Part shown: positions 992-61,607 of the stretch, one piece after another | How the letters are laid out: each line of letters starts with the position of its first letter | Numbering within the stretch: the first letter of the stretch is position 1 | NCBI RefSeq assembly: GCF_017745215.1 | Contig: NZ_JAGHZV010000004.1 | Span: 36,931-100,930 of the forward strand | Origin: Sphingomonas sp. | GTDB lineage: Bacteria > Pseudomonadota > Alphaproteobacteria > Sphingomonadales > Sphingomonadaceae | Direction of reading: 5' to 3' | DNA: 64,000 nt | The notes under the pieces: model-generated | Seen by the model: only the letters and a program-made list of their open reading frames with translations | Databases searched by the model: none | What the model was told of the DNA's origin: nothing | Translations under genes and position numbers: made by a program

Positions 992-1945
992 ATGGGCGTG
1001 GGACTTCAGGATTTTGCCGAGCTTGTTCCGATCATCCCGATCGCGGATGCGCGGGCGCTCGGCGCGGGGCTCTGGGACGAGGAAGCGCTCGAGGCGCTGG
1101 CGACGCACGGCGCGGTGCTGCTGCGCGGGCCGGTGCTGCGCGAGGACGGCGTCGAGCTCGCGCTGTCGATCATCGACGAGGAACTGCTCGACGACGCCTT
1201 CTGGTCGACGCCGCGCAAGCGCGTGGGCGGCAAGACGCTGACCGCGACCGAATATCCCAGCCCGCGGACGATCCAGCTCCATTCGGAGATGGCCTATATG
1301 AACTCGTTCCCGCGCTTCCTGGCGTTCCACGCGCTCGAAGTGGCGGACGAGGGCGGGCAGACGACGATCTGCAACATCGAGAAGGTCACCGAGGCGCTCG
1401 GCGACCGGCTGCGCCCCTTCGCCGAGAAGGGCGTGACGTACCGCCGCACCTTCCAGAAGGGCATCGACATCGCCTGGCAGACCGCCTTCCAGACCGAGGA
1501 CAAGGCCGACGTCGAAAAGATCGCCGAGCGCAACGGCATGGAGCTCGAATGGCTCTCGGGCGATGCGCTGGTGACGCGGCACAAGGCGCAGGGCGTGATC
1601 ACCTCCGAGGACGGCCGGCCGATCATCTTCAACCAGGCGCATATCTTCCATGCCTCGAACCTCGATCCGCAAGCGCGCGAGGGGATCGAGAAGCTCTACG
1701 GCGCCGAGCGGCTGCCGCGCCACGCGCTCTACGGCGACGGCTCGGAAATCCCGCTCGAGGACATCCAGGCGGTCCAGCAGGCGTTCGAAAATCACCAGAC
1801 GGGCATGCATTGGCGCCCGGGCGACATTTTGATCATCGACAATATGCGCTATGCCCATGGCCGCATGCCGTTCAAGGGGACACGGCGGCTAACGGTTTCA
1901 ATGGCGAGAGAGGAAAAGCTCCCCGTCCGCACGGCGCTCTCCTGA
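992..1945 (+). CDS. Fe(II)/2-oxoglutarate dioxygenase, TauD/TfdA-clavaminate synthase-like (SyrP-like)
   Basis: ORF 920..1945, start taken at internal ATG (M25). Has the HSE facial-triad motif (LHSEMAY) and a distal IDNMRYAHGR His/Arg motif typical of this fold. Confidence 0.85.
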   Translation: MGVGLQDFAELVPIIPIADARALGAGLWDEEALEALATHGAVLLRGPVLREDGVELALSIIDEELLDDAFWSTPRKRVGGKTLTATEYPSPRTIQLHSEMAYMNSFPRFLAFHALEVADEGGQTTICNIEKVTEALGDRLRPFAEKGVTYRRTFQKGIDIAWQTAFQTEDKADVEKIAERNGMELEWLSGDALVTRHKAQGVITSEDGRPIIFNQAHIFHASNLDPQAREGIEKLYGAERLPRHALYGDGSEIPLEDIQAVQQAFENHQTGMHWRPGDILIIDNMRYAHGRMPFKGTRRLTVSMAREEKLPVRTALS

Positions 1946-2006
1946 GCGCTGCCTCTTGGGCCGCGGCGTCCGCCGCGGCTGGCCCGTTGGAAGGGAAGTG
2001 TCGCGC

Positions 2007-13257: not shown

Positions 13258-14901
13258 ATGGGCGAGACGATCTTCGTGGGCGCGGGAAGCGGCAAGCCCG
13301 TCGAGCTGGTGCTCAGGCGCGCCAACCGCCACGGGCTGATCGCCGGCGCCACCGGCACGGGCAAGACCGTGACCGTCCAGGGGATCATCGACAGCCTCTC
13401 GGCCGCCGGCGTGCCCTGCTTCGTCGCCGACGTGAAGGGCGACCTTTCCGGCCTCGCCATGGCCGGATCGCCCGCCGCCAAGCTCCACGAGACCTTCGCC
13501 GCGCGCGCCGCCGAGATCGGCTATGCCGGCTGGGCCTATGCCGACAATCCGGTGCAGTTCTGGGATTTGTTCGGGGCACAGGGCCATCCGATCCGCACCA
13601 CCGTCAGCGAGATGGGCCCGCTGCTGCTCGCGCGGCTGATGGACCTCAACGACGTGCAGGAGGGCGTGCTCACCATCGCCTTCACCGTCGCCGACAAGGA
13701 CCGGCTGCTGCTCCTCGACCTCGACGATCTCCAGGCGATGCTCGCGCATTGCGCCGAGCGCGCCGACGAGCTCACCACCACCTATGGCAACGTCTCGAAG
13801 CAATCGGTGGGCGCGATCCAGCGCTCGCTGCTCCAGCTGCGCAGCCAGGGCGGCGACGCCTTCTTCGGCGAGCCGGCGCTGTCTATGAAGGACTTCATCG
13901 CGAGCGACGACAGGGGCCGCGGCGTGGTCAACATCCTCGCCGCCGACAGGCTGATGGCGAGCCCCAGGCTCTACGCGACCTTCCTGCTCTGGCTGCTCTC
14001 CGACCTGTTCGAGAGCCTTCCCGAGGTCGGCGACCCCGACAAGCCGGTGCTCGCCTTCTTCTTCGACGAGGCGCATCTGCTGTTCGCCGACGCACCCAAG
14101 GCGCTGCTCGAGAAGATCGAGCAGGTCGTGCGGCTGATCCGGTCGAAGGGGGTGGGCGTCTATTTCATCACCCAGAACCCGATCGACGTGCCCGACAGCG
14201 TCGCGGGGCAGCTCGGCAACCGCGTCCAGCACGCGCTGCGCGCCTTCACGCCGCGCGACCAGGCCGCGGTCAAGGCCGCCGCCCGGACCTTCCGCGCCAA
14301 TCCGGGCGTCGACGTCGAGGTGGCGATCACCGAGCTGAAGGTCGGCGAGGCGCTGGTCTCGCTGCTCCAGGACGACGGCGCGCCCGCCCCGGTCGAGCGC
14401 GTGCTGGTCAAGCCGCCGGCGTCGCGCGTCGGCCCGGTGACGGCGGACGAGCGCAAGCTGCTGATCGAGACCGACGCGGTCGGCGCGAAATACGACGCGC
14501 GGATCGATCGCGAATCGGCCGAGGAGCTGCTCCACGCCAAGGCGGCCGAGGCGAGCGCGGCGGCGGCCGAGGCGCAGGCGAAGGACGATGCCGACAAGGC
14601 CGCGTCGGCGCAGGCCAAGGAGGACGCCCGGGCTGCCAAGGATGCCGAGCGCGCGCGCATCGCGGCGGAGCGCGACGCCGACCGCCAGGCGCGGCTCGAG
14701 GCCCAGGCGCAGCGCCAAGCCGAGCGCGAGGCGGCGAACAATCCGTGGAACCGCGCAGTGACCCAGGCGACACGCTCGGCGAGCAACGCGGCGGCGCGCG
14801 AAGTGGCGAACCAGGTGTCGAAGGCTGTGTTCGGCAGCTCGCGCGGCATCGGCGCGAGCCTCGTGCGCGGGCTGCTCGGAGGGCTGTTCAAGGGGCGGTG
14901 A
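13258..14901 (+). CDS. HerA-like ATPase, DUF853 (YjgR) family
   Basis: 547 aa. Walker A GATGTGKT near the N-terminus, DEAH-like FFFDEAHLLF, and a charged low-complexity Ala/Glu/Lys tail. Confidence 0.85.
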   Translation: MGETIFVGAGSGKPVELVLRRANRHGLIAGATGTGKTVTVQGIIDSLSAAGVPCFVADVKGDLSGLAMAGSPAAKLHETFAARAAEIGYAGWAYADNPVQFWDLFGAQGHPIRTTVSEMGPLLLARLMDLNDVQEGVLTIAFTVADKDRLLLLDLDDLQAMLAHCAERADELTTTYGNVSKQSVGAIQRSLLQLRSQGGDAFFGEPALSMKDFIASDDRGRGVVNILAADRLMASPRLYATFLLWLLSDLFESLPEVGDPDKPVLAFFFDEAHLLFADAPKALLEKIEQVVRLIRSKGVGVYFITQNPIDVPDSVAGQLGNRVQHALRAFTPRDQAAVKAAARTFRANPGVDVEVAITELKVGEALVSLLQDDGAPAPVERVLVKPPASRVGPVTADERKLLIETDAVGAKYDARIDRESAEELLHAKAAEASAAAAEAQAKDDADKAASAQAKEDARAAKDAERARIAAERDADRQARLEAQAQRQAEREAANNPWNRAVTQATRSASNAAAREVANQVSKAVFGSSRGIGASLVRGLLGGLFKGR

Positions 14902-21300: not shown

Positions 21301-21893
21301 AGCTGATCGCCGGCGCGCCGAGCGACACCCCACCCTCGCTCTTTGCCGCGCTCAAGGGCCAGGCGCCCGCGGCGAAGCAGCTCTACCTCGGCGACTGGCT
21401 GGGCATCACGCTCGACGACGGGCTGTCGCTCGCGCTCGCGCTGTTCTGGCGCCCGTCGACGCCGCAATGGATCACCGGCACCAAGGTCGGCCGGCCGCCG
21501 AAACAGGGCTTCGGCAACCTCTACTTGCCCGTCCAGGGCCACCAGCCGCAGGGCAACGGCGGGCTCGCGCTCAAGCCGCGGCTGGGCCCGGGCGACGATT
21601 GGGACTTCGATCTCAACATCCTCGATCCCGGGACCCCCGACGCCTCTCCCCACTGGACCTCGCCCGCCTCGGGCCACAGCTATGCGACGGCCTGGCAGAT
21701 CGACTTCGCCCCGCGCGTCCAGCGCCTCGGCCTGCCGCCGACGCTCTACCTCCGCGCGCTCAGCGAGAATTGCGAGATCATCCCCGGCGACGCGAGCGGT
21801 GCCTTCTTCGAAGGCGCCGCGCTCGCCTTCGCCGACCGCGAGGGCAAGCGGCGGATCGGCCAGGCCTTCGTCGAGCAGATGGGGTTCAACTAG
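18327..21893 (+). CDS. large fusion protein: right-handed parallel beta-helix region plus C-terminal AttH/CrtC-like lipocalin domain
   Basis: 1188 aa with GGGGGGAGG RBS. N-terminus is WVSPDGDDHDAGTRYAPFRSL (DUF1565-like) with PbH1-type repeats. The C-terminus carries KEWWYYVG..., GTLWLDRQ and FFEGAA...GQAFVEQMGF, characteristic of AttH/hydroxyneurosporene-synthase-like domains. No obvious signal peptide. Confidence 0.8.
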   Translation: MAAGSFDRTSYPVTRWVSPDGDDHDAGTRYAPFRSLDRAQAEVRRFAESAPPGSEIQVLLMEGEYPLAEPLRFDPALFGPDGPRVRFASAGDAVPVISGGVRITGWTLHDPDRNIWQASARGLNSRQLIVGGRRAQRARTTMPDGGLPAGFRPTPVVPQPAKGGEAYTIGGGIDYVPTDLNPAPWRDPMLWKNADQVEAVIQTQWKMIRVPLRKVHPPLGPAPGRIEMAQPAWTNANLVFTKQPDGSLAPGIWSFWQVSWFENHVAFLDTPGEWVLDAAADTIFYMPRAGEDLATVEAILPVVETLVEAHGSEEAPVCNLAFEGLAFRHATWLGPSGDDGYVVDQSGFHLVGSGHRSNVTGHFEHVIRTPGNLSFRHARNIRFERCDFAHLGAVAVDFGTGSQGNRIHGCNFDDIASAAIQIGGIDRIDYFEPSTANHTRDNQVTANRIRRTGRDYSDSAAIYLGFTTNSLVASNSIAETPWSGIALGWGWGLLDPGSFPGVPGATSGQWGVPPSRTVNCGNRILHNHIERFLEQLWDGGAIYCCGWQGNGFDDALRIEGNVLCRKRPAAGGNILYNDGGSRYLIVTGNASFDNPIGAIDLGPKPRPGDPLPYDAAPSVVNGVPYGGDVGGCVTYGDIRYEGNYWAAGLIPVKEALTDAVEELLTLLFTGHAFGTYGPGGFFDICPYSQGHVSYPTNLVFEDNHQIPLGKADVPPSLLAAAGVPDATRGIVASGPAPAGGGASFPPRNPGPSWNVPRVSLPGLFGVQKQYAKEWWYYVGIADAADGKRFGLQLEISRFSLGSLQLGLGITGIGWRDATGRDFYLSAEGVGFGGALRVPPVSDTAFSAHLRPLIEITGRSSDLKRDLHWNLPIFGGSDGWKFDYLPAPSQGAPLGTPGSRYALAVKGRGFVTDATSADTRAASYALDLELTDRRGMVMEGLSGYVGPAMFTDDDIGLASYECAQPVLRIGRGSLTIDGTAHAIAGGTLWLDRQLIAGAPSDTPPSLFAALKGQAPAAKQLYLGDWLGITLDDGLSLALALFWRPSTPQWITGTKVGRPPKQGFGNLYLPVQGHQPQGNGGLALKPRLGPGDDWDFDLNILDPGTPDASPHWTSPASGHSYATAWQIDFAPRVQRLGLPPTLYLRALSENCEIIPGDASGAFFEGAALAFADREGKRRIGQAFVEQMGFN

Positions 21894-21909
21894 AGGAAGA
21901 GCCCTGGAG

Positions 21910-21944
21910 CCTTCAATCCTCCCCTGGAAGGGGAGGATTGAAGG
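21910..21944. repeat. family-2 palindromic element, single hairpin
   Basis: CCTTCAATCCTCCCC-TGGAA-GGGGAGGATTGAAGG, perfect 15-bp arms. Confidence 0.85.
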
Positions 21945-22024
21945 TTCGACCAAGCCACCCGCTTTACATCCGCCCGCCCCCACGGCAGCGTCGCGCCTTC
22001 GCCACGCCGCAACGAAAGCCCGCC

Positions 22025-23608
22025 ATGAAGACCTTCCTCGCCGCGCTCCTCGCGATGCTCGCCGCGGCCGTGCCCGCCCAGGCGCAGAAGGACGACGCGA
22101 CCGACGCCTTCTTCAAGCCGAGCGAGACCCGGTCGAACGGCAGCGTCACCATCGGCGGCGCGCGCATCGCTTACCAGGCGATCGCCGGCACGCTCGTCGT
22201 CCATGCCAAGGACTGGCAGGACACCGACGCGATCGAAGCGGAGAAGGGCAAGGCCGACAAGGACGACGCCAAGCCCAAGCCAGAAGCGTCGATGTTCTAC
22301 ACCGCCTACTTCAGGACCGGCGCCCCCGCCGCCAACCGCCCGATCACCTTCGTCTTCAACGGCGGCCCCGGCTCCTCGTCGATCTGGCTCCACATGGGCG
22401 CCTTCGGCCCCGTCCGCGTCGAGACCCCCGACCTCGCCCACGCCCCCGCCGCGCCCTATGCCCTGGTCAACAACGACCAGAGCCTGCTCGACGTCTCGGA
22501 CCTCGTCTTCATCGATGCGCCCGGCACCGGCTTCAGCCGCGTCGCCGGCGACAAGAAGGAAGAGGCCTTCTACGGCGTCGACCAGGACATCCATGCCTTC
22601 GCCGAGTTCATCGGCGCCTTCCTCGACAGATACCAGCGCTGGAACTCGCCCAAATATGTCCTGGGCGAGAGCTACGGCACGATGCGCGGCGCCGGGCTGG
22701 CGCTCGCGCTCCAGCAGGCGAGCATCGATCTGAACGGCGTGATCCTGCTCTCGGACATCCTCAACTGGGACCTCGTGCCCGACGATCCGCAAGTGAATCC
22801 CGCGATCGACGCGCCCTATGTCGTGGCGCTGCCCACCTATGCCGCCACTGCCTGGTACCACCATCGGCTCGCCAGCCAGCCGCCCGCGCTCCGGCCCTTC
22901 CTCGACGAAGTCGAGGCGTTTGCCACGGGCGATTATGCGCTCGCGCTGATGCAGGGCAATTCGCTGCCCCTCGAGCGCCGCCAGGCGATCGCCGCGAAGC
23001 TCGCGGGCTATACCGGCCTCTCCGAAGCCTATCTGCTCAGGACCAACCTCCGCATCGAATATGGCGCCTTCCAGAAGGAGCTGATGGCGGGCGACGACCG
23101 CACCACCGGTACGCTCGACACGCGCTTCACCGGCTGGACGATCGACGCGCTGAGCAAGGTCGCGAGCTACGATCCGCAGGGCTCGGCGCTCGAGAGCGCC
23201 TATGTCGCGGCGTTCAACGCCTATGCGCGCGGCACGCTCGGCTATGGCGAAGGCATGCGCTTCAAGCCCGGCATCGATATCTACGGCAGCTGGGACTATA
23301 AGCACCAGCCGCCGGGCGCGGGCAAGCCGCTGATCGCGCTGCCCAACGTCCTGCCCGATCTCGCCGTGGCGATGAAGCAGAATCCCAATCTCAAGGTGAT
23401 GGTCAACGGCGGCTATTTCGACGTCTCGACGCCCTATTTCGCCGGCCGCTACGAGATGCGCCACTTGCCGGTGCCGCCCGCGATCGCGGCGAACGTCGAA
23501 TATCATTACTACGAGTCGGGCCACATGGTCTATGTGAACCCCGCCGTCCTCAAGGCCTTCCGCGCCGACGTCGCCGACTTCATCCGGCGGACCGACAATC
23601 TGCCCTGA
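22025..23608 (+). CDS. secreted serine carboxypeptidase, peptidase S10 family
   Basis: Internal ATG (residue 274 of ORF 21206..23608). Signal peptide MKTFLAALLAMLAAAVPAQA. NGGPGSSS and GESYG catalytic-Ser motifs. Confidence 0.85.
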   Translation: MKTFLAALLAMLAAAVPAQAQKDDATDAFFKPSETRSNGSVTIGGARIAYQAIAGTLVVHAKDWQDTDAIEAEKGKADKDDAKPKPEASMFYTAYFRTGAPAANRPITFVFNGGPGSSSIWLHMGAFGPVRVETPDLAHAPAAPYALVNNDQSLLDVSDLVFIDAPGTGFSRVAGDKKEEAFYGVDQDIHAFAEFIGAFLDRYQRWNSPKYVLGESYGTMRGAGLALALQQASIDLNGVILLSDILNWDLVPDDPQVNPAIDAPYVVALPTYAATAWYHHRLASQPPALRPFLDEVEAFATGDYALALMQGNSLPLERRQAIAAKLAGYTGLSEAYLLRTNLRIEYGAFQKELMAGDDRTTGTLDTRFTGWTIDALSKVASYDPQGSALESAYVAAFNAYARGTLGYGEGMRFKPGIDIYGSWDYKHQPPGAGKPLIALPNVLPDLAVAMKQNPNLKVMVNGGYFDVSTPYFAGRYEMRHLPVPPAIAANVEYHYYESGHMVYVNPAVLKAFRADVADFIRRTDNLP

Positions 23609-23627
23609 GGCGATCCTTTACTTACAC

Positions 23628-23709
23628 CGTCATCCCGGCGAAAGCCGGGACCCAGGGCCATGAGCGACGTCCTTTGTAACCCTGAGTCCCGGCTTTCGCC
23701 GGGATGACG
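23628..23709. repeat. family-1 MITE-like element, ~82-nt long form
   Basis: Arms CGTCATCCCGGCGAAAGCCGGGACCCAGGG and CCCTGAGTCCCGGCTTTCGCCGGGATGACG flank a ~22-nt spacer. Confidence 0.85.
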
Positions 23710-23731
23710 GCGGATTCAATCAACGATCATT

Positions 23732-24895
23732 CTACAGAGATCGCGCGATCAGCAGCTTCATGATCTCGTTCGACCCGCCGTAGATCCGCTGCACCCGCGC
23801 GTTGCGCCACATCCGCGCGATCGGATAGTCATTGATATAGCCATAGCCGCCATGGAGCTGCAGGCATTCGTCGAGCACCTGCCACTCGGTGTCGGTCACC
23901 CAATATTTGGCGATCGCCGCAGTGGTGAGGTCGAGGCTTCCCGCCACCTGGCGCTCGATGCAGTCGCCCACGAACACCTTTGCCACCGTCGCCTTGGCCT
24001 TGCACTCGGCGAGCTTGAACTGGGTGTTCTGGAAGTCGATCACGCGCTGGCCGAATGCCTTGCGCTCCTTGACGTACTCCGAGGTGACGTCGATCGCCTT
24101 CTCCATCGTCACCACGCTGGAAACCGCGATGACGAGGCGCTCGCGCGGCAGCTCGGCCATCAGCTGGCGGAAGCCCTGGCCTTCCTCGAGCCCGAGCAGG
24201 TTCTCCGCCGGCACCCAGACGTCGTCGAAGAACAGCTCGCTGGTGTCCTGCGCGTCGAGCCCGATCTTGTCGAGCGCCTTGCCGCGGCGGAAGCCCTCGG
24301 CCTCGGCGGTTTCGACGACGAGCAGCGAGACGCCCTTGGCGCCCTCGGCCGGGTTGGTCTTGGCGACCACGATGATGAAGTCGGCGATCTGGCCGTTCGA
24401 GATGAAGGTCTTGGCGCCGTTGATCCGATAGCCGTTGCCGTCGCGCAGCGCTGTGGTGCGCACCGACTGGAGGTCCGATCCCGCGCTCGGCTCGCTCATC
24501 GCGATCGCCGAGACGAGCTCGCCCGAGCAGAGCCGCGGCAGCCAGCGGCGCTTCTGCTCCTCGGTGCCGTGCGCGAGGACATAGGGGAGGATGATGACGT
24601 TGTGCAGCGACAGCGCAAAGCCGTCGACGCCGTGGCGCCCGACCTGCTCGACCAGCGCGACGTCGTGGCGGAAGTCGCCGCCGCCGCCGCCATACTCCGC
24701 CGGGATCGATGCGCCCAGCAGCCCCGCCGCGCCCGCCTGGCGCCAGAAGGCGCGCTCGACCTGCCCCGCCTCGCGCCACTTCGCGATCCGCTCGGGCGGC
24801 GCCTCGCGCTCGAAGAACTTGCCCGCAGCTTCGCTCAGCAGCTGGACCTCGGGATCGAGCATGCACTCGGGCGGCGGGACGTCGAGACCAGGCAT
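23732..24895 (-). CDS. acyl-CoA dehydrogenase
   Basis: The ORF opens at TTG 24913; ATG 24895 has a GGAGAGG RBS. ACAD fold motifs are present (AMSEPSAGSD, TFISNG, YGGSNEI). Confidence 0.9.
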   Translation of the reverse strand: MPGLDVPPPECMLDPEVQLLSEAAGKFFEREAPPERIAKWREAGQVERAFWRQAGAAGLLGASIPAEYGGGGGDFRHDVALVEQVGRHGVDGFALSLHNVIILPYVLAHGTEEQKRRWLPRLCSGELVSAIAMSEPSAGSDLQSVRTTALRDGNGYRINGAKTFISNGQIADFIIVVAKTNPAEGAKGVSLLVVETAEAEGFRRGKALDKIGLDAQDTSELFFDDVWVPAENLLGLEEGQGFRQLMAELPRERLVIAVSSVVTMEKAIDVTSEYVKERKAFGQRVIDFQNTQFKLAECKAKATVAKVFVGDCIERQVAGSLDLTTAAIAKYWVTDTEWQVLDECLQLHGGYGYINDYPIARMWRNARVQRIYGGSNEIMKLLIARSL

Positions 24896-27065: not shown

Positions 27066-28217
<1,152 letters not shown>

Positions 28218-28410
28218 CGCTTCCTCCCCATCGCGAGCGCTCGACCGGCGCTCAATTGACATGAGTGTAAGTGAGACCTCGGCGAGCGGCAACGGGACTC
28301 TTCGCCAAATTGCGGGCGGGATGCGATCCATCCCGTTTTGGATGGGCTAATGTTGCGCCTGCGTAGCGGCCATGTTACCCAGAGTTGAGTGAATGCAAGG
28401 GGGGAATACC

Positions 28411-28584
28411 ATGCGCGACGACCTCATCACCGGGAAGGGCGACGGCATTTCCGACGCGCCCCGCAAGCCGCGCTGGCGCACGCCGAAACTTGTGGCGGAC
28501 AATATCACTGCAGTGACGCACGCGGATTTTTCGCCGGGTACCGATGCTTATGACGGCACGTCGACTTCCTACGGCCCGAGCTGA
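28411..28584 (+). CDS. putative lasso-peptide precursor (57 aa; predicted leader 37 aa, core ADFSPGTDAYDGTSTSYGPS)
   Basis: AAGGGGGG RBS 7-8 nt upstream of ATG 28411 (M7 of ORF 28393..28584). The gene ends 27 nt before the AsnB-like cyclase gene. WxxPxL leader motif, Thr at -2, Ala1 and Asp8, C-terminal Ser. Confidence 0.6.
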   Translation: MRDDLITGKGDGISDAPRKPRWRTPKLVADNITAVTHADFSPGTDAYDGTSTSYGPS

Positions 28585-28611
28585 GCCTGGCCTTCCAGCG
28601 CACCGATTGTC

Positions 28612-30495
28612 ATGACCGAGTTCGCCGGACTGGTTCGTCTGGACGATCTGCGCGTCGATCCTGCCTCGATCGATCGCCTGACTCGCGCGGTTCATGGTGC
28701 CGGGCGGCCGGTCCGCTGGCAGCCGGACCCGTCTTGTTTCTTCGTCGAAGCGCGCGTCGAGGGAGAGCCGCTTCCAAGTCAGCCTGACGACGACACGGCT
28801 ATCCTGGCCGACGTATGGCTCGAAGCGCCGGGCGACGCCGCGCGCGCGCTGGGGCTGAACCGGGCGATCGCGGATCGTGCCCTCGTCACCGCCGCCTGCG
28901 CGTCATGGGGGGCGGAGGCCGCCGCAGACCGATTGCCCGGCGCGCTCGCGCTCGCGCATTGGGACGGCAGGGCACGCCGCCTCACGCTCGCACGCGACGC
29001 GTTTGGCGACCGGCCGCTCTATTATGTTGAGACGCCCGCGCTGATCCTGTTCGCCACCACGCTCCAGGCGATGCTCGCCATGCCCGAGACGCCGCGCGAG
29101 CTGGACGAGACGGTGATCGCCGACACGCTTGCCCGGGCGCTGCGCGATCCGGAGCGGACGATCTACCGCCACATCCGCCGCGTCCCGCCGGGCGGCAGCG
29201 TGACTTTCGAGCGCGGCCGCTGCAAGGTCGGGCGCTGGTACGGTCGCGAGCGCATCGCGCGGGTGCGATTCCGACGCGACGAGGACTATGTCGAGGCGGC
29301 GCGTGCGCTCCTCGACGCCGCGGTCGCGGCGCGGCTGCCGCGGGATGGCGGCTGCGCGACGACGCTCTCGGGCGGGTTCGATTCGGCCGGCGTCACCGCC
29401 ACTGCGGCGCAGCTGCTCAACGGCGAACGCTTGCCCGTCTTCACGCGACTCGCTGATGCCGAGCATTGCCGGATCGAAGGCGACGAGGCGCGGCTCGCAG
29501 CGCTGCTCGTCCAGCGCCACCCGAACATCGACTGGCACGTGATCGACCGCGACGACCCCGCTGCCTCGGGGTTCGACCCCGACCGCGATGCGCGCGCGCG
29601 GCTGGTGCCGCGGATGGCCGCGCTCAACGGGCCCTGGTTCGAATCGCTCTACCTCGCGGTCGGGCGGCACGGCGCCACGCGGCTGCTGAACGGCGGGACG
29701 GGCAACATGACGCTGTCCTACGAGGGGCGTGCCGATGCGATCGGCGCGCTGCGCCATGGCCGGATCGGCGACGCCTGTCGCGAGATCGGCGGCGCGGCGC
29801 GGCGCGGCGGCCGGTCGCTCCCGCGCGCAGCCGCCGCGGCGCTGTTCCAGGGGATCGCGCCGCGCTCGCTCCGGCGCTGGCGCACGCGGCTGCGCGACGG
29901 GCGCCTGGCCTGGCTCCGCCATTCGATGCTCGCGCCCGACTTCCTCGACGCGCTCGACTATGCCGATCATGCCCGCACGCTCGGTCACGACATTCCGTTC
30001 GAGCCGGAGGGCGACAGCATCGACTATCGCCTGCGTATGCTCCAGTCGCAGGGCACCGCCGACATGCAGGGGTTCGTCCGCCGCCGCTGGCGCTTCGACC
30101 TGCTCGATCCCTATCGCGACCGCCGGCTCGCCGAATTCTGCCTGGGCATTCCCGACGAGCAGCACCGGCAGGGCGGCGAGGGCCGCCGGCTCGCGCGCCG
30201 CGTGCTCGCCGACCGGGTGCCGGCCGAGACGCTCGCCCGCCAGGGGCGCGGCCGGCAGGCGAGCGACTGGTTCGCGCTGCCGTCCGGGCGCCGCGAGGAA
30301 ATGGCCGAGGCAGTCGATCGGATCGCACGCTCGCCGCTCGCCAGTCGCGTGCTCGACGTGCCGCGGATGCGCGTGCTGCTCGATACCTGGCCGCGAGACG
30401 GCGAGACGGCGAGCCAGGCGCGCCACGGCAGCGCGCTCCAGCGGGGGATCGCGATGGGCGCGTTCCTGCGCTGGCACGAGGGCCGCAATGACTGA
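28612..30495 (+). CDS. asparagine synthetase-like protein, lasso-peptide lactam synthetase (C protein)-like
   Basis: 627 aa. PP-loop motif SGGFDS. N-terminus MTEFAG lacks the Cys2 glutaminase nucleophile of true AsnB. The gene directly follows a small precursor-like gene. Confidence 0.85.
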   Translation: MTEFAGLVRLDDLRVDPASIDRLTRAVHGAGRPVRWQPDPSCFFVEARVEGEPLPSQPDDDTAILADVWLEAPGDAARALGLNRAIADRALVTAACASWGAEAAADRLPGALALAHWDGRARRLTLARDAFGDRPLYYVETPALILFATTLQAMLAMPETPRELDETVIADTLARALRDPERTIYRHIRRVPPGGSVTFERGRCKVGRWYGRERIARVRFRRDEDYVEAARALLDAAVAARLPRDGGCATTLSGGFDSAGVTATAAQLLNGERLPVFTRLADAEHCRIEGDEARLAALLVQRHPNIDWHVIDRDDPAASGFDPDRDARARLVPRMAALNGPWFESLYLAVGRHGATRLLNGGTGNMTLSYEGRADAIGALRHGRIGDACREIGGAARRGGRSLPRAAAAALFQGIAPRSLRRWRTRLRDGRLAWLRHSMLAPDFLDALDYADHARTLGHDIPFEPEGDSIDYRLRMLQSQGTADMQGFVRRRWRFDLLDPYRDRRLAEFCLGIPDEQHRQGGEGRRLARRVLADRVPAETLARQGRGRQASDWFALPSGRREEMAEAVDRIARSPLASRVLDVPRMRVLLDTWPRDGETASQARHGSALQRGIAMGAFLRWHEGRND

Positions 30496-31420
30496 TCCGG
30501 CGGCTCATCGCGGCTACACGCTCGCCGGCTGGCGCGTGGTCAGCGCGATCGCGCTCCCCGAACTGGCGTCGTGGACCGGCGACGACCGGGCGCCGGACCT
30601 CGAGATCGTGCTGGGCCCGGTGCCCGACGCGCTCGACGCGCCACGGCTGCGCACGCCGGTCGCGCAGATCGAAGCGAGCGGGCGCGCGCGCTTCGGCATC
30701 GCCTCGGTCGGGACCTATCTGGTGGAGCCGGGGCGGATCACCATCGATCCGCACATGGCGCCGGATGCGCCCGACGTGCGGCTCTTCCTGTTCGGCACGC
30801 CGTTCGGGATCGCCTGCCATCAGCGGGGGCTGGTGCCGCTCCATGCCTCCACCGTCGAAGTCGATGGCGAGGCGGTCGCCTTCACGGGCGCCTCGGGCGT
30901 CGGCAAGTCGACGCTGGCCGCCGCCTTCCAGCGCCGCGGGCATCGCCTGCTCGGCGACGATGTCGCGCCGGTGCAGGTGAACGGCGAGCAGGCCCTGATC
31001 CTTCCCGGCATCCGGCGCGTGCGGCTGTGGGAGGATTCGGCGCAGGCCGCAGGCTGGGACGTCGCCGCGCTCGAGCCGTGCCGGGTCGGCATGAGCAAGT
31101 TCAGCCACGCGCCCGAGAACAGCTTCGCCGAAGCACCGCTCAGGGCGCGCGCGATCGTCCATCTCGAACGCCAGCCGAGGAGCGTGGGCGAAGCGAGCTT
31201 CCGCCGGCTGCGCGGCCGCCAGGCGGTGCGGCGCGCGAGCGACGAGATCTTCCGCCTGCGCTCGCTCCGCGCGCTCGCCGGCGACGCCGAAGCGCTGGTG
31301 CGCAGCGCGCGGCTGGCGGGCGCGATCCCGCAACATTTCGTGCTCACGCGGCCGCATCGCTTCGAGGATCTCGACACGCATGTCGACATGATCCTCGAGA
31401 CGATCCGCCGCGACGGCTAG
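30488..31420 (+). CDS. HPr kinase C-terminal-domain-like kinase (RiPP precursor Ser kinase-like)
   Basis: ATG overlaps the cyclase stop by 8 nt. 310 aa. LHASTVEVDGEAVAFTGASGVGKSTLA P-loop context is typical of HprK-related kinases. Confidence 0.8.
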   Translation: MTDPAAHRGYTLAGWRVVSAIALPELASWTGDDRAPDLEIVLGPVPDALDAPRLRTPVAQIEASGRARFGIASVGTYLVEPGRITIDPHMAPDAPDVRLFLFGTPFGIACHQRGLVPLHASTVEVDGEAVAFTGASGVGKSTLAAAFQRRGHRLLGDDVAPVQVNGEQALILPGIRRVRLWEDSAQAAGWDVAALEPCRVGMSKFSHAPENSFAEAPLRARAIVHLERQPRSVGEASFRRLRGRQAVRRASDEIFRLRSLRALAGDAEALVRSARLAGAIPQHFVLTRPHRFEDLDTHVDMILETIRRDG

Positions 31421-31431
31421 CGGCGGCGGGC

Positions 31432-32265
31432 ATGGGCGGCGCGATCTGGCTTGCCTCCTATCCCAAGTCCGGGAACACTTGGGCGCGGCTCGCGCTCCTA
31501 TCGCTGTCGAACGGCGGCGCGCCCGCGAGCCTCGGCGAACTGGGCGGCTTCGCGCCGATGCTCGCGACCAATCCCAACCTCGACCGGCTGCTCCAGGTCG
31601 AGAGCGGCCATCTGACCGAGGACGAGATCGAGGCGCTCCGCCCCGACCTCAACCGCGAGCTCTTCGCCGGGCCCGAGCCGCGCCCGTGCAAGGTCCACGA
31701 CGCCTGGACGCGCGCGCCCGATGGCCGGCCGCTGTTCGACGCCGACGTGACGCACGCGGCGATCTACCTGGTGCGCGACCCGCGCGACATCGCCGTCTCC
31801 TGGTCCCGCTTCGCCGGCGTGGGGATCGACCGCGCGGTCGCGATGCTTGCCGATCCCGGTGCCGAGCTCTCGTCCAACGCCCGTGCCGCCCGCCTCCAGC
31901 TGCGCCAGCGGCTGAAGAGCTGGAGCCGCCACGTGACGAGCTGGCTCGACGAATCGGGCTTCGACCCGCTGCTGATCCGCTACGAGGACATGCTCGAGGA
32001 TCCGGCGCGCGAGATCGCACGGATGGCGGCGCACATGGGCTGGGCGGCCGAGCCCCAAGCAGTGGCCGGCGCGGTCGAGGCGACGCGCTTCGAGGAGCTC
32101 GCCGAGCAGGAGCGCCGCCACGGCTTCCGCGAGCGGATGGACCGGACCGAGCGCTTCTTCCACACCGGCCGCAGCGGCGGCTGGCGCGAGCTGCTCAGCG
32201 CCGACCAGGCCGCGCGGATCGAGCGCGACCATGGCGAGGTGATGGCGCGGCTGGGGTATCGCTAG
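31432..32265 (+). CDS. PAPS-dependent sulfotransferase (Sulfotransfer_1-like)
   Basis: 277 aa. 5'-PSB loop YPKSGNTW and 3'-PB motif YLVRDPRDIAVS. Confidence 0.85.
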   Translation: MGGAIWLASYPKSGNTWARLALLSLSNGGAPASLGELGGFAPMLATNPNLDRLLQVESGHLTEDEIEALRPDLNRELFAGPEPRPCKVHDAWTRAPDGRPLFDADVTHAAIYLVRDPRDIAVSWSRFAGVGIDRAVAMLADPGAELSSNARAARLQLRQRLKSWSRHVTSWLDESGFDPLLIRYEDMLEDPAREIARMAAHMGWAAEPQAVAGAVEATRFEELAEQERRHGFRERMDRTERFFHTGRSGGWRELLSADQAARIERDHGEVMARLGYR

Positions 32266-33650
32266 CCGGGACGCAGGCGCTTCCAGGCGTCGAGCACGGC
32301 ATCGACGGCCTCGTCCGCAGCCTCGAAGGTCGTCGCCGCCGAGGTGACCGAGACGCGCATCACCCAAGCCCCGCGCCACTGCGCCGCGCCGACGAAGGCG
32401 ATCGCATCGTCCTGGACCTGGCGCACCGTGTCGAGCGTGGCATCGTCGCTCGCGCCGAAGCGGACCATGAACTGGTTGAGATCGACCTGGCAGACCAGCG
32501 CGATCCCCGGCGCCTCGGCGAGCCGCTCGGCCATGTGGCGCGCGATCTGGCAGTGGCGTTCCACGAGTTCGGCGACCCCTTCGCGGCCCAGCCGGCGGAT
32601 CATCGCCCAGGTCGCGAAGCCCCGCGCGCGGCGCGAGAGCTCTGGGACATAGGCCGAAGGGTCGCGCTCGGCGCCTTCGGCAGGCGGCAGATAGCTCGCC
32701 GAGATCGCCATCGCGCGGCGGTGCGCCTCGGCGTCGCGGACGATCGCGAAGCCGCAGTCATAGGGCGTCTGGAGCCATTTGTGCCCGTCGGTCGCCCAGC
32801 TGTCGCAGCCTTCGATTCCCACGGTGAGGTGCGCACGCGCCGGCGCGGCCTGAGCCCAGAGCCCGAAGGCGCCGTCGACGTGCAGCCACGCGCCTTTCTC
32901 GCGCGCGATCGGGACCAGCTCGGCAAAGGGGTCGCAGGCGCCGGTGTTGATCTGGCCGGCCTGCGCGATCGCGATCACCGGGCCGGTGCAGTCGCCGAGC
33001 ACGCGCTCGAACTCGCCCGCGAGCATCCGCCCGCAATCGTCGGTCGCGACCTGGCGGACGCGCTTGGCGCCGAGCCCGAGATATTTGAGCGCCGAATAGA
33101 CGGTGGCGTGCGCATCGGCGCCGATCACCACCTCGACCGGCGGCGCGCCGAACATGCCGTCGCTCTCGACGTCCCAGCCGGCGCGGCGCAGCACCTCGCT
33201 CCGTGCGGCGGCGAGGCAGACGAAGTTCGCCACGGTCGCGCCCGTCACAAAGCCGATCGAGCTCTCGCGCGGCAGGCGCAGCAGCTCGAGCAGCCAGTCA
33301 GCCGCGACTTGTTCGACCGCGGCGGCGGCGGGCGCGGCGATGAGGTTGCCGGCGTTCTGCCCCCAGGCCGAGGCAAGCCAGTCCGCCGCGACGCCCGCGG
33401 GGTGCGAATTGCCGATCACCCAGCCGAAGAAGCGCGGGCCGGTCGAGGCGCGGATGCCGGGGGTGGCGCGCTCGACGAGCTCGTCGATGATCGCGCTCGC
33501 GTCGCCGCCCGTCTCGGGCAGCGGCCCGGCAAAGGCGGCGAGCATCGCGGCATAGTCGGCGATCGGCGTCTGCTCGGCTTCGGCGATGCGCTCGCGATAG
33601 GCGCGGGCATGAGCGGCGGCGCGGCTCAGGGCTTCGAAATCGTCGTTCAT
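32262..33650 (-). CDS. PLP-dependent group II decarboxylase family protein
   Basis: 462 aa. DGHKW PLP-lysine motif and fold-type I architecture. Its stop overlaps the sulfotransferase stop (CTAG). Confidence 0.85.
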   Translation of the reverse strand: MNDDFEALSRAAAHARAYRERIAEAEQTPIADYAAMLAAFAGPLPETGGDASAIIDELVERATPGIRASTGPRFFGWVIGNSHPAGVAADWLASAWGQNAGNLIAAPAAAAVEQVAADWLLELLRLPRESSIGFVTGATVANFVCLAAARSEVLRRAGWDVESDGMFGAPPVEVVIGADAHATVYSALKYLGLGAKRVRQVATDDCGRMLAGEFERVLGDCTGPVIAIAQAGQINTGACDPFAELVPIAREKGAWLHVDGAFGLWAQAAPARAHLTVGIEGCDSWATDGHKWLQTPYDCGFAIVRDAEAHRRAMAISASYLPPAEGAERDPSAYVPELSRRARGFATWAMIRRLGREGVAELVERHCQIARHMAERLAEAPGIALVCQVDLNQFMVRFGASDDATLDTVRQVQDDAIAFVGAAQWRGAWVMRVSVTSAATTFEAADEAVDAVLDAWKRLRPG

Positions 33651-49575: not shown

Positions 49576-51252
49576 CTAGCGCCCCTGCGAGCGCCAGCGC
49601 TTGATCGTGCGCTCGAGGATCTGCTCCTCGCCGCCGGTTTCCTTCCAGAGCTGCGAGAAAAGGGGATCGTCGGAGGCGGGGCGCTTGCCGTCCTCGAGGC
49701 TGTCGAAGAGCAGGCGCATCGGCGTCGCGACGCCTTCGCCGACCGCGATGCACTCGCGGTTGCGGAGCGCCGGGATCGAATCGAGGAAGCCGCGCGCGCC
49801 TTCGGGCATCGCCGCGCGGACGAAGGCCTGGTCGCGCTCGTTGTTGAGGCGCATCGACAGGATCGTGCCGCACTGCGAGAGCACACCCTCGGCGAGGTCC
49901 GACGGGCGCTGGGTGATCAGCCCCAGCGACACGCCGTACTTGCGGCCTTCCTTGGCGATGCGGCTGAGGATGCGGCCCACCGACGAGCCGTCGGCGTTGC
50001 GCTCGTTGGGCACGTAGCGGTGCGCCTCCTCGCAGACGAGCAGCACGGGGCGCTTGGCCTCGCTGCGCGACCAGATCGCGAAGTCGAAGACCATCCGCGA
50101 CAGAACCGCCACGACCACCGAGGTGATCTCCGAGGGCACGCCCGAGACGTCGATGATCGAGATCGGCTTGCCGTCGCCGGGCAGGCGGAAGATGCGCGCG
50201 AGGAACTGCTGCATCGTGTCGGCAACCAGCATGCCCGAGAACATGAAGGTGTAGCGCGGGTCGGCCTTGATCTCGTCGATCTTCGAGCGGATGCGCAGAT
50301 ACGGCGCCGTGTCGGTCGCCTTGTCCATCTTGCCCATTTCGAGCTGGATGATCTGGGTAAGGTCCGACAGCAGATAGGGGATCGGCGCGTCGACGGTGAG
50401 CTTGCCGATCTCCTGCGCCAGCCGGTTCTTCTGCTTGGCCATCAGGATGCACTTGGCGAGGATGTCCGCGTCCACCTGGCGGTCCGAGCCTTCGGTGGTC
50501 AGGAACACTTCACAATGTTCCTCGAAGTTCATCAGCCAGTAGGGCATCTGCAGGTTCGAGACGTCGTAGAGCGCGCCGTTGTTCTTGAACGCGGCGGCAT
50601 ATTCGCCGTGGGGGTCGATCATCACGATGTGACCCTGCGGGGCGAGCTCGCAGATGCGGTGGAGGATCAGCGCCGCGGCGGTCGACTTGCCGGTGCCGGT
50701 CGAGCCGAGCAGCGCGAAATGCTTGCCGAGCATCGCGTCGATGTAGAGCGCGGCGCGGATGTCCTTGGTCGGATAGACCATGCCGATCGGGATGTGCGCG
50801 CGATCGTCGGCGGCGTAGATCTGCTTCAGGTCGGGCGTCGACACCGGATAGACCGCGCAGCCCGGCGTGGGATAACGCGTCACGCCGCGGCGGAACTTGT
50901 AGAGCTTGCCGGTGAGCTTCTCCTCGTCGCCTTCGCCGAGGAAGTCGATGAGCGCGGCGATGCGCTCGCTGCCGTCGCCGAGCAACTTGAGCGAGCGGAC
51001 GTTGGCGATCAGCCAGGTCGAGCCGACGCGCATCTTCACCTGGCTGCCGACCTGGCCCGAATTGGCGAGCGTCGGGTCCGGGTTGCCGGAAAGCTGCGCG
51101 AGCGCCGTGCCGTCGAGGATCACCTGGCTCGACGAGCCGGCGATCTCGAGCACGGTGCCTATCGCGGCGATGCTGTGCGCGGGCGGCGAAACCATGCCGC
51201 CGCTGTGCGGCGCTGCGCTTTCGAACCCGCGCGCGCCAAACTGGCCGTCCAT
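49576..51252 (-). CDS. HerA-like (DUF87) P-loop ATPase
   Basis: 558 aa. Walker A GSTGTGKST, Walker B LLVCEEAHRY and a C-terminal LGLITQRPSDL block. Confidence 0.8.
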   Translation of the reverse strand: MDGQFGARGFESAAPHSGGMVSPPAHSIAAIGTVLEIAGSSSQVILDGTALAQLSGNPDPTLANSGQVGSQVKMRVGSTWLIANVRSLKLLGDGSERIAALIDFLGEGDEEKLTGKLYKFRRGVTRYPTPGCAVYPVSTPDLKQIYAADDRAHIPIGMVYPTKDIRAALYIDAMLGKHFALLGSTGTGKSTAAALILHRICELAPQGHIVMIDPHGEYAAAFKNNGALYDVSNLQMPYWLMNFEEHCEVFLTTEGSDRQVDADILAKCILMAKQKNRLAQEIGKLTVDAPIPYLLSDLTQIIQLEMGKMDKATDTAPYLRIRSKIDEIKADPRYTFMFSGMLVADTMQQFLARIFRLPGDGKPISIIDVSGVPSEITSVVVAVLSRMVFDFAIWSRSEAKRPVLLVCEEAHRYVPNERNADGSSVGRILSRIAKEGRKYGVSLGLITQRPSDLAEGVLSQCGTILSMRLNNERDQAFVRAAMPEGARGFLDSIPALRNRECIAVGEGVATPMRLLFDSLEDGKRPASDDPLFSQLWKETGGEEQILERTIKRWRSQGR

Positions 51253-51320
51253 TCGGCTGCTCCCCGTTGTGCCGCGAGTGAATCTGCCGATCGGAGGTAA
51301 AGAAGTGGTTGTGGCGGCCC

Positions 51321-52085
51321 TCAGAATCTCCGCCAGATTGCACCGGCCGCCCAGCCGAAGAACACCGAAAGCGCAACCGCGACAAGGCCGTAGAGGAAGG
51401 AATAGCGATCCGCCGAGCGCGCGATGAAGCGCTCGAAGCCCGATTTGCGGATCTCGATCGGGCGCACCGCGGCGGCGAGCACGCGGCCGTCGCGGATCAG
51501 GAAGGTCTCGGCGGTGAAGCGCCCCACCGGCACGCGCGCCGGGATGGTGAGCCGCGCGCGATAGAGCACGCCGCCGGTGATCTCGACGGCGCCGGGGGCC
51601 TCGTAGAACAGCCCGCTGCGCTTGCGGAGCTCGACCAGCCCCTCGTCGAAGCGCGTCTGGACGTCGGGCGAGGCGTTGGAGGCGGGGGAGAGTTGCAGGC
51701 TGTCGAGCCCGAGCTCGTAGATCGCGCGGGTGCGATCGTCGACGAGCTGGCTTACCGGCCGCGACGACGCGACGGCGTAGAAGCTCGGCGCCGAGCGGTA
51801 GCGCATCTTCTCGGCATTGACCCAGATGCCCGCGACCTTCTCCTTCTCGCGGACCAGCGCATTCTGGGTGGGGCCGCGCACGACGACGACGATGTCGGCG
51901 GGCTTCTCGCCCGCGCCGGGCTGGCGGCCGCCGGGATAGAGGATCGCGCCGAACAGCAGCAGGTCGGCGCCGGTGAAGCTGTAGGCGATCTCGATGTCGC
52001 GCTGCGAGACGTCGGGCACCAGCTCAGGCTTTGCCTGGCCCATCAGCAGCGGCGCGAGCAGCGCAAGCGCGAGGAGGCGCCTCAT
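51321..52085 (-). CDS. TIGR02186-family (Alph_Pro_TM) membrane protein
   Basis: 254 aa with a signal peptide and a C-terminal TM segment. ATGA overlap with the upstream TauE gene. This pairing is typical of alphaproteobacteria (from memory). Confidence 0.8.
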   Translation of the reverse strand: MRRLLALALLAPLLMGQAKPELVPDVSQRDIEIAYSFTGADLLLFGAILYPGGRQPGAGEKPADIVVVVRGPTQNALVREKEKVAGIWVNAEKMRYRSAPSFYAVASSRPVSQLVDDRTRAIYELGLDSLQLSPASNASPDVQTRFDEGLVELRKRSGLFYEAPGAVEITGGVLYRARLTIPARVPVGRFTAETFLIRDGRVLAAAVRPIEIRKSGFERFIARSADRYSFLYGLVAVALSVFFGWAAGAIWRRF

Positions 52086-61569: not shown

Positions 61570-61607
61570 GTCGATGTGAGTGATGAGCGTGACGGCGTAG
61601 ATTCAAA

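Follow-up and report, generated by a model that had tools for sequence, protein, structure and literature searches.

A putative kinase- and sulfotransferase-associated lasso peptide cassette without nearby B1 or B2 genes in Sphingomonas sp.

Lasso peptides are valued as stable scaffolds, and both lasso biochemistry and genome mining rest on the central assumption that B proteins are required. In the kinase-associated lineage, the leader motif WxxPxL is bound by the B1 RREs of paeninodin-type clusters (PMC13381572), and SyanK has been shown in vitro to polyphosphorylate its precursor at the C-terminal Ser (PMC9266682, PMC8498205). The characterised proteobacterial and deltaproteobacterial systems depend on both B1 and B2, and B1 speeds up the kinase of a related system (PMC10368454). 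Pseudomycoidin, however, is formed in vivo when B1/B2 are absent, both in E. coli and in B. subtilis, and an A-C-K cluster that naturally lacks B genes was pointed out in Stanieria cyanosphaera PCC 7437 (Zyubko et al. 2019, PMC6993621). An earlier sequence-only reading of the DNA analysed here had assumed that the leader must be removed by B before the cyclase can act; this is contradicted by pseudomycoidin, which belongs to the same kinase-associated lineage (PMC6993621). A further described group, the linear polyphosphorylated peptides (LPP; Popov et al. 2026), is RRE-dependent and often encoded in the same genome as paeninodin-type clusters (PMC13381572).

The A-C-K-S operon and its products

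The window, that is, the whole 64-kb stretch of Sphingomonas sp. DNA that was analysed, carries co-directional genes for a precursor (A), a cyclase (C), a kinase (K) and a sulfotransferase (S) at 28411-32265. The coordinates proposed for this operon by the sequence-only reading all hold, and its interpretation as a lasso-type A-C-K-S operon is supported here. The precursor gene (28411-28584, + strand, 57 aa) is preceded by the Shine-Dalgarno sequence AAGGGGGG (28397-28404), 6 nt before the ATG; an alternative start at the upstream ATG at 28393 was deemed less likely. The divergent intergenic spacer that separates the precursor gene from the thiolase start (28218..28410) was assigned as a putative promoter region, and inspection of its sequence revealed no sigma-70 consensus. 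The cyclase gene (28612-30495, +, 627 aa) encodes Asn_synthase and GATase_7 domains (Pfam). The kinase gene (30488-31420, +, 310 aa; Hpr_kinase_C) overlaps it by 8 nt, its ATG lying across the cyclase stop codon (ATGA), and K is translationally coupled to C. The sulfotransferase gene (31432-32265, +, 277 aa; Sulfotransfer_1) begins 11 nt past K.

The divergent flanking gene (27066..28217, -) encodes a thiolase (acetyl-CoA C-acetyltransferase; Pfam/NCBIfam). Its ORF extends over 27066-28331, but the real start is probably 28217, as judged from the alignment with locus L093 and from a 383-aa gene call in L084. The thiolase lies outside the pathway, yet it is a syntenic anchor of the cassette and also adjoins A-C-K on the P0005 contig. 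On the other side, a convergent gene (32262..33650, -) encodes a PLP-dependent decarboxylase (Pfam/NCBIfam). A single CTAG is common to the stop codons of this gene and S, and this overlap leaves no space for a B1 gene between them. The GC3 values of C, K and S were 0.87, 0.90 and 0.93, respectively, against a window median of 0.92. Codon-position GC picks the annotated frames and marks the long ORFs on the opposite strand as artefacts of frame, as had been claimed from the sequence. Near-invariant columns of the families are kept at 41 of 44 positions in C, 22 of 23 in K and 45 of 46 in S, the catalytic motifs among them. Given these conserved positions, the coupled gene starts and the native codon usage, the operon is judged to be intact rather than decaying.

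The precursor is predicted to comprise a 37-aa leader (28411..28521, +; MRDDLITGKGDGISDAPRKPRWRTPKLVADNITAVTH) and a core of 20 aa followed by the stop codon (28522..28584, +; translated as ADFSPGTDAYDGTSTSYGPS). The leader motif WxxPxL is present as W(-16)RTP(-13)KL(-11), together with Thr(-2), and W(-16), P(-13), L(-11), I(-6) and T(-2) were invariant in all 12 of the closest-clade precursors, including those from loci without B1 and without B2. The core has Asp at position 8, the conserved residues Phe3 and Tyr10-Asp11, and the C terminus ...YGPS, ending in Ser20. The features that define lasso precursors, namely a [Y/W]xxPx[L/V/I] plus Thr(-2) leader and an Asp/Glu at core positions 7-9, were thus all found. 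The sequence aligns without gaps with the precursors of L093, L094, L095, L002 and L105, and the precursors of all relatives carry WxxPxL, Thr(-2), Asp8 and a C-terminal Ser. The ring is accordingly predicted to be an Ala1-Asp8 macrolactam.

The best NCBIfam match of C was the lasso cyclase family NF033535 (166 bits; family cutoff 525), with asparagine synthase scoring lower. The PP-loop S253-G-G-x-D257-S258 is intact; the protein begins MTEFAG and has no N-terminal Cys nucleophile. The relatives of C all lie in lasso contexts, and a profile of C retrieved loci grading from Sphingomonadales C-K-S-B1 into canonical Paenibacillus/Bacillus C-K-B1-B2-N clusters. C therefore groups with lasso cyclases and not with true asparagine synthetases, and was assigned as a putative AsnB-like lasso macrolactam synthetase; grouping with the asparagine synthetases was the outcome that the sequence-only reading had named as fatal to its proposal.

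The motifs of K (H119, S136-G-x-G-K140-S141 and D157-D158) fit the His-Lys-Asp-Asp motif described for lasso kinases (PMC9266682, PMC10368454). K is thus a putative HPrK-like peptide kinase and, together with the Ser-ending precursor, conforms to the paeninodin-type subfamily. Membership of the NCBIfam/TIGRFAM 'HPr-rel-A system' was rejected, as K scored 54 bits against TIGR04352 (cutoff 200) and the partner PqqD (TIGR04353) was absent. S has a 5'-PSB loop (P11-K-S-G-N-T-W17) and a 3'-PB motif (R115-D-P-R-D119), among solved structures it comes closest to phenol SULT1A, Teg12/14 and StaL, and it was assigned as a putative PAPS-type sulfotransferase. The operon would then specify a phosphorylated and probably sulfated lasso peptide, the pairing of kinase and sulfotransferase predicting a doubly anionic modification pattern. 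No description of a sulfated lasso peptide was found in the literature searched.

B genes in the window and in related loci

The entire 64 kb was cut into stop-to-stop fragments in six frames, and these were searched (--max) with HMMs specific to the B1, B2 and NTP-transferase families. The DNA covered reaches 28 kb upstream of the cyclase and 33 kb beyond it (the contig is 248 kb), and about 40 further window genes were covered by a Pfam scan. The 64-kb window contained no B1 RRE (95-position HMM, best E = 7; tblastn, best E = 0.03; no PF05402), no B2 peptidase (best E = 1.4; no PF13471), no NTP-transferase (NTP_transf_5, N; best E = 10) and no ABC exporter (no ABC_tran). The same B2 HMM does detect the alphaproteobacterial B2 in L098, L109 and L111. 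The absence of B1, B2 and exporter, initially claimed for 28.2-33.7 kb, is thereby extended to 64 kb. For the window's contig and the replicons of the B2-less loci, no B1 occurred among the best 120 of 1052 database homologs and no B2 among the best 120 of 765.

The orthologous locus L093 also lacks B1/B2. Its four genes are intact at 50-63% identity without any disruption, the lengths of K and S are exactly equal to those in the window, and the adjoining thiolase is 89% identical. In most close relatives S is followed immediately by B1, which is missing in the window and L093. About 15 loci of the closest Sphingomonadales clade have the architecture C-K-S-B1 without B2, three of them with the full ±10 kb visible; the NTP-transferase and ABC exporter are likewise missing in most closest-clade loci, and no replacement peptidase family is conserved in this clade. 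The full S-K-B2-B1 set occurs in more distant alphaproteobacterial relatives, which implies a reductive history. The sequence-only reading had named, as another ground for rejecting its proposal, that orthologous loci always carry adjacent B1/B2 genes which are simply deleted here. This holds by half: it applies to B1, which was apparently lost, but B2 is missing across nearly the whole clade.

Elsewhere in the family, second C-K modules (L057, L065 and L081) adjoin a single B1-B2-N set, bare C-K pairs have no B gene within 10 kb (L043, L047, L054 and L060), the only B1 of L004 sits 8 kb off beside another cyclase, and B2 is 3 kb distant on the opposite strand in L020 and L040. Sharing and dispersal of B genes are therefore normal in the kinase-associated lasso family. 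Within its clade of stripped-down lasso clusters, the window locus marks the far extreme. A related A-C locus of Sphingomonas So64.6b (L001) has no B genes; two lasso BGCs and two RRE-only ones lie elsewhere in this genome, and its antiSMASH table omits L001 (PMC9716278). Neighbourhood-based mining does miss such loci, as had been anticipated, and rules demanding B beside C under-count this lineage.

Possible routes to the mature peptide

Two routes had been put forward from the sequence, supply of the peptidase/RRE in trans and B-independent maturation; the evidence favours the former without settling the choice. Our leading, though tentative, proposal is a functional minimal paeninodin-type cassette served in trans by B1/B2 genes elsewhere in the genome. 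The 57-aa precursor would be phosphorylated by K at Ser20, possibly several times, and S would move sulfate from PAPS onto a core hydroxyl, most plausibly that of the clade-invariant Tyr10 (D-x-Y-D/E). The leader would then be cut off after Thr(-2)-His(-1), and C would adenylate Asp8 and close the isopeptide ring with Ala1 around the tail. The steps provided from elsewhere would be recognition of the leader by a B1 RRE and its cleavage by a B2 cysteine protease. Supply in trans is favoured because W(-16), P(-13), L(-11) and T(-2), which are read by B1 and B2, stay invariant, and the stimulation of the kinase by B1 in the related system was counted in its favour. So were the shared and scattered B genes of the family and the lasso and RRE-only BGCs that So64.6b carries apart from L001. 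The lack of B1/B2 in 64 kb and the activity of a cyclase of this lineage without them in the pseudomycoidin system weigh against it, as does, weakly, the lack of hits on the window's contig and the B2-less replicons among the best 120 homologs of each protein, and the leader conservation could instead serve the kinase or cyclase.

A less probable reading is that the Sphingomonadales clade has dispensed with the dedicated peptidase, and the window lineage with the RRE too, maturation proceeding without a B protein. A housekeeping protease might trim the leader and C act on the freed core, or the cyclase might be leader-tolerant, with the bulky phosphate and sulfate groups helping to lock the tail. 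This would be consistent with pseudomycoidin and the Stanieria cluster, with the B2-less clade and its lack of a conserved substitute peptidase, and with the stability of the B-less layout across the window and L093. It does not predict, however, that the leader positions read by B1/B2 remain invariant even where B genes are missing, that most clade members still keep B1, or that both proteins are needed in the characterised proteobacterial systems. If it were true, no earlier lasso peptide would have borne both an O-sulfate and a phosphate, as this product would.

It is unlikely that the locus is a silent or defunct remnant in which B1, and earlier B2, were deleted while the remaining genes persist without yielding a mature peptide. 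The loss of the B1 that follows S in most close relatives, the reductive history and the missing promoter consensus would suit such a remnant, but the four intact ORFs, the retention of nearly all conserved positions, catalytic motifs and precursor motifs, and the undisrupted B-less ortholog L093 with unchanged K and S lengths argue against it. That the AsnB-like enzyme forms some other ATP-dependent amide, on a phosphorylated/sulfated peptide or a non-peptide substrate, is very improbable: the NF033535 score is far under the cutoff, the sole PDB sequence match of C is a hydroxyamidotransferase and a defining lasso-pathway component is missing, but lasso cyclase is still the top-scoring family, the homologs are continuous with bona fide paeninodin-type clusters, and a precursor with Thr(-2), Asp8 and C-terminal Ser always lies beside the enzyme. 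The window cassette, L093 and the approximately 15 B2-less relatives offer natural material for testing if B proteins are dispensable or shared in trans.

Comparison with known systems

From its gene content and motifs, the cassette was assigned to the paeninodin-type (kinase-associated) lasso cassettes. It shares with the clusters of Paenibacillus dendritiformis (padeA-C-K-B1-B2-D) and Thermobacillus (ThcoK) the cyclase lineage, an HPrK-like kinase with the His/P-loop/Asp-Asp motif, the WxxPxL leader, Thr(-2), an Asp for ring closure and a C-terminal Ser as kinase target (PMC8498205, PMC9266682, PMC13381572). It differs in lacking B1, B2, the NTP-transferase and the ABC exporter, in the added sulfotransferase, in the order A-C-K-S and in a cyclase identity of 23-30%. 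The syan cluster of Sphingobium yanoikuyae ATCC 51230 (SyanA, SyanK, SyanB2), compared by description, is also a Sphingomonadales kinase-associated lasso cluster with a putative lasso product; unlike the window, it encodes its own B2, SyanB2 (PMC10368454). The LPP clusters likewise use an HPrK-like kinase on a leader-bearing precursor, but have no cyclase, a SipW-like signal peptidase, a YxxP leader and phosphorylation at Ser3 (PMC13381572).

The B-less A-C-K (Stanieria-type) arrangement, a precursor, cyclase and kinase with no nearby B gene, was found in both the window and L093. The pseudomycoidin system belongs to the same kinase-associated lineage, although its native psm cluster encodes B1/B2/N, and the Stanieria cluster, which is putative, carries a glycosyltransferase where the window carries a sulfotransferase. 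Compared with both, the window leader retains every B-reading motif. Since the 2019 paper had already described synthesis independent of B proteins as well as an A-C-K cluster lacking them (PMC6993621), the present locus extends known biology rather than overturning it.

Cassette genes and predicted product

The four genes of the cassette lie on the forward strand, and reading of the sequence upheld the coordinates proposed for them in the sequence-only reading. The precursor gene (A) encodes 57 residues from an ATG at 28411, with the Shine-Dalgarno sequence AAGGGGGG located 6 nt before it. The cyclase gene (C; 28612-30495) overlaps the start of the kinase gene (K; 30488-31420) at its 3' end via ATGA, and the sulfotransferase gene (S; 31432-32265; Sulfotransfer_1) follows the kinase gene after 11 nt. 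Pfam and NCBIfam assigned the cyclase to Asn_synthase/GATase_7, the kinase to Hpr_kinase_C, and the flanks to thiolase and Pyridoxal_deC. No coding room is left between the sulfotransferase and the convergent PLP-decarboxylase genes because one CTAG is common to both stop codons. The GC3 of C, K, and S was 0.87-0.93 against a window median of 0.92, and codon-position GC singled out the annotated frames. The same measure marked the long antisense ORFs as frame shadows, as had been suspected; those over K and S that a crude gene caller preferred were an artefact of long out-of-frame upstream extensions. The promoter/terminator scan found no sigma-70 consensus promoter and a single terminator-like site, inside C, at chance level. 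The MAG contig is 248 kb long, and identical sequence was present in two Logan assemblies. Proteins of this MAG include MBO9712351-54 (locus tags J7495_055xx), and the raw runs are SRR14086905 and SRR14086907.

The locus is a predicted paeninodin-type lasso pathway. It had been considered that the AsnB-like protein might be a true asparagine synthetase, but its best NCBIfam match was the lasso isopeptide cyclase NF033535 (166 bits, far below the strict model cutoff), ahead of the asparagine synthase model at 114 bits, and its relatives occur in lasso contexts. The N-terminal Cys nucleophile is missing, while the SGGxDS PP-loop is kept. When a solved lasso cyclase was sought by PDB sequence search, the sole match was a hydroxyamidotransferase. 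The translated precursor consists of the predicted leader MRDDLITGKGDGISDAPRKPRWRTPKLVADNITAVTH followed by the predicted core ADFSPGTDAYDGTSTSYGPS. All genuine precursors in the retrieved loci have WxxP, a Thr two residues ahead of the core, Asp as core residue 8 or 9, and a C-terminal Ser. WxxPxL, with its nearly invariant Trp, is the motif bound by B1 RREs of the paeninodin type (PMC13381572), and the C-terminal Ser is the site of phosphorylation, often repeated, by lasso HPrK-like kinases, including the proteobacterial SyanK (PMC8498205, PMC9266682).

The sulfotransferase is similar to phenol sulfotransferases that depend on PAPS (SULT1A) and also to Teg12, Teg14, and StaL, which are glycopeptide sulfotransferases. 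O-sulfation of a core Tyr would be the natural guess, because Tyr10 in D-x-Y-[D/E] and another Tyr close to the C terminus are both invariant in the cores of the closest clade, and the likeness to phenol sulfotransferases may lend it slight support. The guess stays weak since Tyr is not universal among loci containing S. As a general marker of S, Tyr was rejected: six such loci (L015, L018, L020, L028, L033, and L059) have no core Tyr, and Tyr is also found in Firmicutes cores from loci lacking S. A full-text literature search found no description of a sulfated lasso peptide.

Absence of leader-processing genes

The earlier observation that no PqqD-like RRE, peptidase, or ABC exporter lies nearby was extended to the whole 64 kb by profile and Pfam searches. 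Profiles for B1 (the PqqD-like RRE; 95 positions), B2 (the transglutaminase-type leader peptidase), and N (the NTP_transf_5 nucleotidyltransferase) were built from related loci and run with heuristics off on every stop-to-stop fragment of the window in six frames, giving best E values of 7, 1.4, and 10, respectively. For PqqD, tblastn of the window with two neighbouring PqqD proteins gave a best E of 0.03, and among about 40 other window genes scanned with Pfam there was no PqqD, Transglut_core3, or ABC transporter. The cassette is surrounded by housekeeping genes (acyl-CoA dehydrogenase, SDR, CoA-transferase, thiolase, pheS/pheT, and rplT/rpmI). Among the best 120 matches listed per profile search of a 5.8-billion-protein set, none of the B1 or B2 homologues belonged to the contig or samples of the window. 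B1 and B2, two defining components of a canonical lasso cluster, are absent from this locus.

Several other features of the window were recorded. At 920-4637, a TauD/TfdA-family dioxygenase precedes a stand-alone protein of 894 aa with adenylation and carrier domains (AMP-binding + PP-binding); the two form a small NRPS-like pair that has no relation to the cassette. In about 1.8 kb at 21893-23732 no gene is convincing: a single long ORF there (21893-23524, on the minus strand) shows a GC3 of 0.65 and lacks a Pfam match, and neither a tRNA nor an Rfam match was found. Two HerA/DUF87-type ATPases are encoded at 13258-14898 and 49579-52023, the latter an ORF of 815 aa whose long N-terminal part matches no family. 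At 55759-63891, a bacterial alpha-2-macroglobulin (1936 aa) is directly followed by a PBP1C-type transglycosylase/transpeptidase, a known periplasmic defence pairing.

With a profile built from homologues of the cyclase, 80 loci were recovered from genomes and 22 from metagenomes; for the metagenomes a clade profile was needed, as a scan with the single window cyclase gave no match. The gene neighbourhoods form a continuum of architectures: C-K-B1-B2-N, the published paeninodin arrangement, in Paenibacillus/Bacillus; K and C together with an N::B2 fusion in Acidobacteriaceae; C-S-K-B2-B1 in more distant Alphaproteobacteria; and C-K-S-B1 in the clade nearest the window. Among loci with a cyclase identity of at least 42%, several of the B2-less ones with the full +-10 kb in view, B1 was present and B2 absent in about 15 (L002, L004-L006, L094-L097, L100-L105, and L116), one (L098) had B2, and neither gene was found in the window or in L093, the orthologous locus sharing the thiolase flank. 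The absences of B2 were deduced to be real because the profile readily detects B2 in other Alphaproteobacteria (L020, L040, L109, L111, L112, L114, and L115). B2-less loci are carried, among others, by the closed genomes CP048817.1 (L001), OW818683.1 (L003), NZ_CP173255.1 (L041), and OZ245874.1 (L028). Clustering of all remaining ORFs of the B2-less clade gave no conserved substitute peptidase; the recurrent extras were an ABC exporter, DUF6916, Collar proteins, GNAT, and an RND pump. Absence of B2 is a trait of the clade, and absence of B1 is a further step in the lineage of the window and L093.

Related loci showed further variation. In eight Acidobacteriaceae loci (L011, L013, L014, L019, L027, L029, L031, and L048), the NTP_transf_5 C terminus is fused to B2 (about 560 aa) and no B1/RRE was detectable within +-10 kb, the converse of the Sphingomonadales pattern, in which B1 is kept and B2 is lacking. 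In Alphaproteobacteria, a recurrent accessory module adjoins lasso-type cyclases (L001 5621-9353; also L004, L005, L007, L009, L020, L028, L030, L100, and L102). It consists of phage-tail-collar (PF07484) proteins, three in tandem, with a GNAT acetyltransferase and DUF6916; an ABC exporter and NTP_transf_5 frequently accompany it, and it is absent from the window. Also absent are putative extra tailoring genes of the closest relatives, namely a second sulfotransferase (PF09037/PF13469), 2OG-Fe(II) oxygenases, a methyltransferase, and, adjoining B1, a Trp-halogenase-like flavoenzyme, even though the cores have no Trp (extra genes at L095 2450-3298, L119 1528-2505; L093 4365-5147, L095 1-1988, L096 7999-9132; L002 14066-15727, L095, L096).

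Source of leader recognition and cleavage

Counted back from the predicted cleavage site, W(-16), P(-13), L(-11), I/V(-6), and T(-2) are unchanged in all 12 of the 12 closest-clade precursors, with or without B1/B2 nearby, and it was argued from this invariance that something still reads the leader. We hypothesized that the B1 and B2 functions would be supplied in trans from genes elsewhere in the genome, a reading tentatively favored over B-independence and given close to an even chance. Sharing and dispersal of B genes are common in the family. In Cohnella/Paenibacillus, second C-K modules adjoin a single B1-B2-N set (L057, L065, and L081) and bare C-K pairs occur that lack any B gene over 10 kb (L043, L047, L054, and L060), which suggests that in Firmicutes, too, modular precursor/cyclase units may be served in trans. 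A lone B1 lies 8 kb away in L004, and B2 is on the opposite strand 3 kb away in L020 and L040. The antiSMASH table of Sphingomonas So64.6b lists two lasso and two RRE-only clusters (PMC9716278), and the A-C locus of this strain at 0.30-0.32 Mb is missing from it.

Maturation of the product without B1 and B2 was judged less likely than supply in trans and has a precedent in pseudomycoidin. This peptide of the same kinase-associated lineage was made without B1/B2 in E. coli and B. subtilis, and the cyclase by itself suffices even when the core is provided without a leader. The authors drew attention to a cluster in Stanieria that comprises just A, C, and a kinase homolog, and they proposed that clusters of this sort go unnoticed (PMC6993621). 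The leader motifs, invariant in 12/12 precursors even where B1/B2 are not nearby, speak against B-independence.

Integrity, history, and comparison with known systems

At columns at least 90% conserved in alignments of 92 (C), 74 (K), and 22 (S) family members, the window proteins keep 41/44, 22/23, and 45/46, respectively, including kinase H119, G-x-G-K-S, and D157-D158 and both PAPS-binding loops of S. In L093, the nearest relative, A, C, K, and S are all intact, and the lengths of K and S are identical to those in the window. No B1 or B2 was found in the 5.6 kb downstream of the L093 cassette, and unannotated 124-aa and 215-aa ORFs of that locus, considered as cryptic B1/B2, gave hhalign probabilities of <1%. 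A third contig, P0005, has the thiolase-A-C-K order of the window. The conserved site, the intact genes in L093, and the synteny of P0005 therefore argue for an old resident of this site that is whole without adjacent B genes. The suspicion that B1 and B2 had simply been lost here from a decaying remnant held in part, as B1 is present in about 15 close loci and absent here, but B2 is absent from almost the whole clade and the genes are intact; as judged from these sequences, the cassette is unlikely to be a remnant.

Recent horizontal acquisition was ruled out by the native codon-position GC and the thiolase-A-C-K synteny with L093 and P0005. The L093 thiolase neighbour is 89% identical over 98 residues, against 50% (A), 57% (C), 63% (K), and 61% (S) for the cassette. 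This gap points to either very fast divergence or allelic replacement at a fixed chromosomal site, and the cassette would appear to be diverging several times faster than the adjoining thiolase.

A 16-nt inverted repeat (14/16 complementary) brackets A-C-K-S exactly, at 28355-28370 (GCGCCTGCGTAGCGGC) and 32265-32280 (GCCGGGACGCAGGCGC); its right arm runs from the final base of the S stop codon and is contained in the decarboxylase gene, at its 3' end. The probability of its arising by chance was put, roughly and post hoc, at about 0.005; the repeat may be a scar left by insertion or recombination, or a coincidence in DNA of 72% GC.

The value of the locus lies in the clade-level picture: clusters without B2 are numerous in nature, and in the two orthologues without any B gene the leaders still look B dependent. 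It shares its predicted pathway with paeninodin-type clusters and differs from them in the lack of B1 and B2. It matches the A-C-K type without B flagged in 2019 (Stanieria; uncharacterised), except that a sulfotransferase is added; an exporter is absent. The cassette is thus not a new kind of cluster, A-C-K clusters without B being already known.
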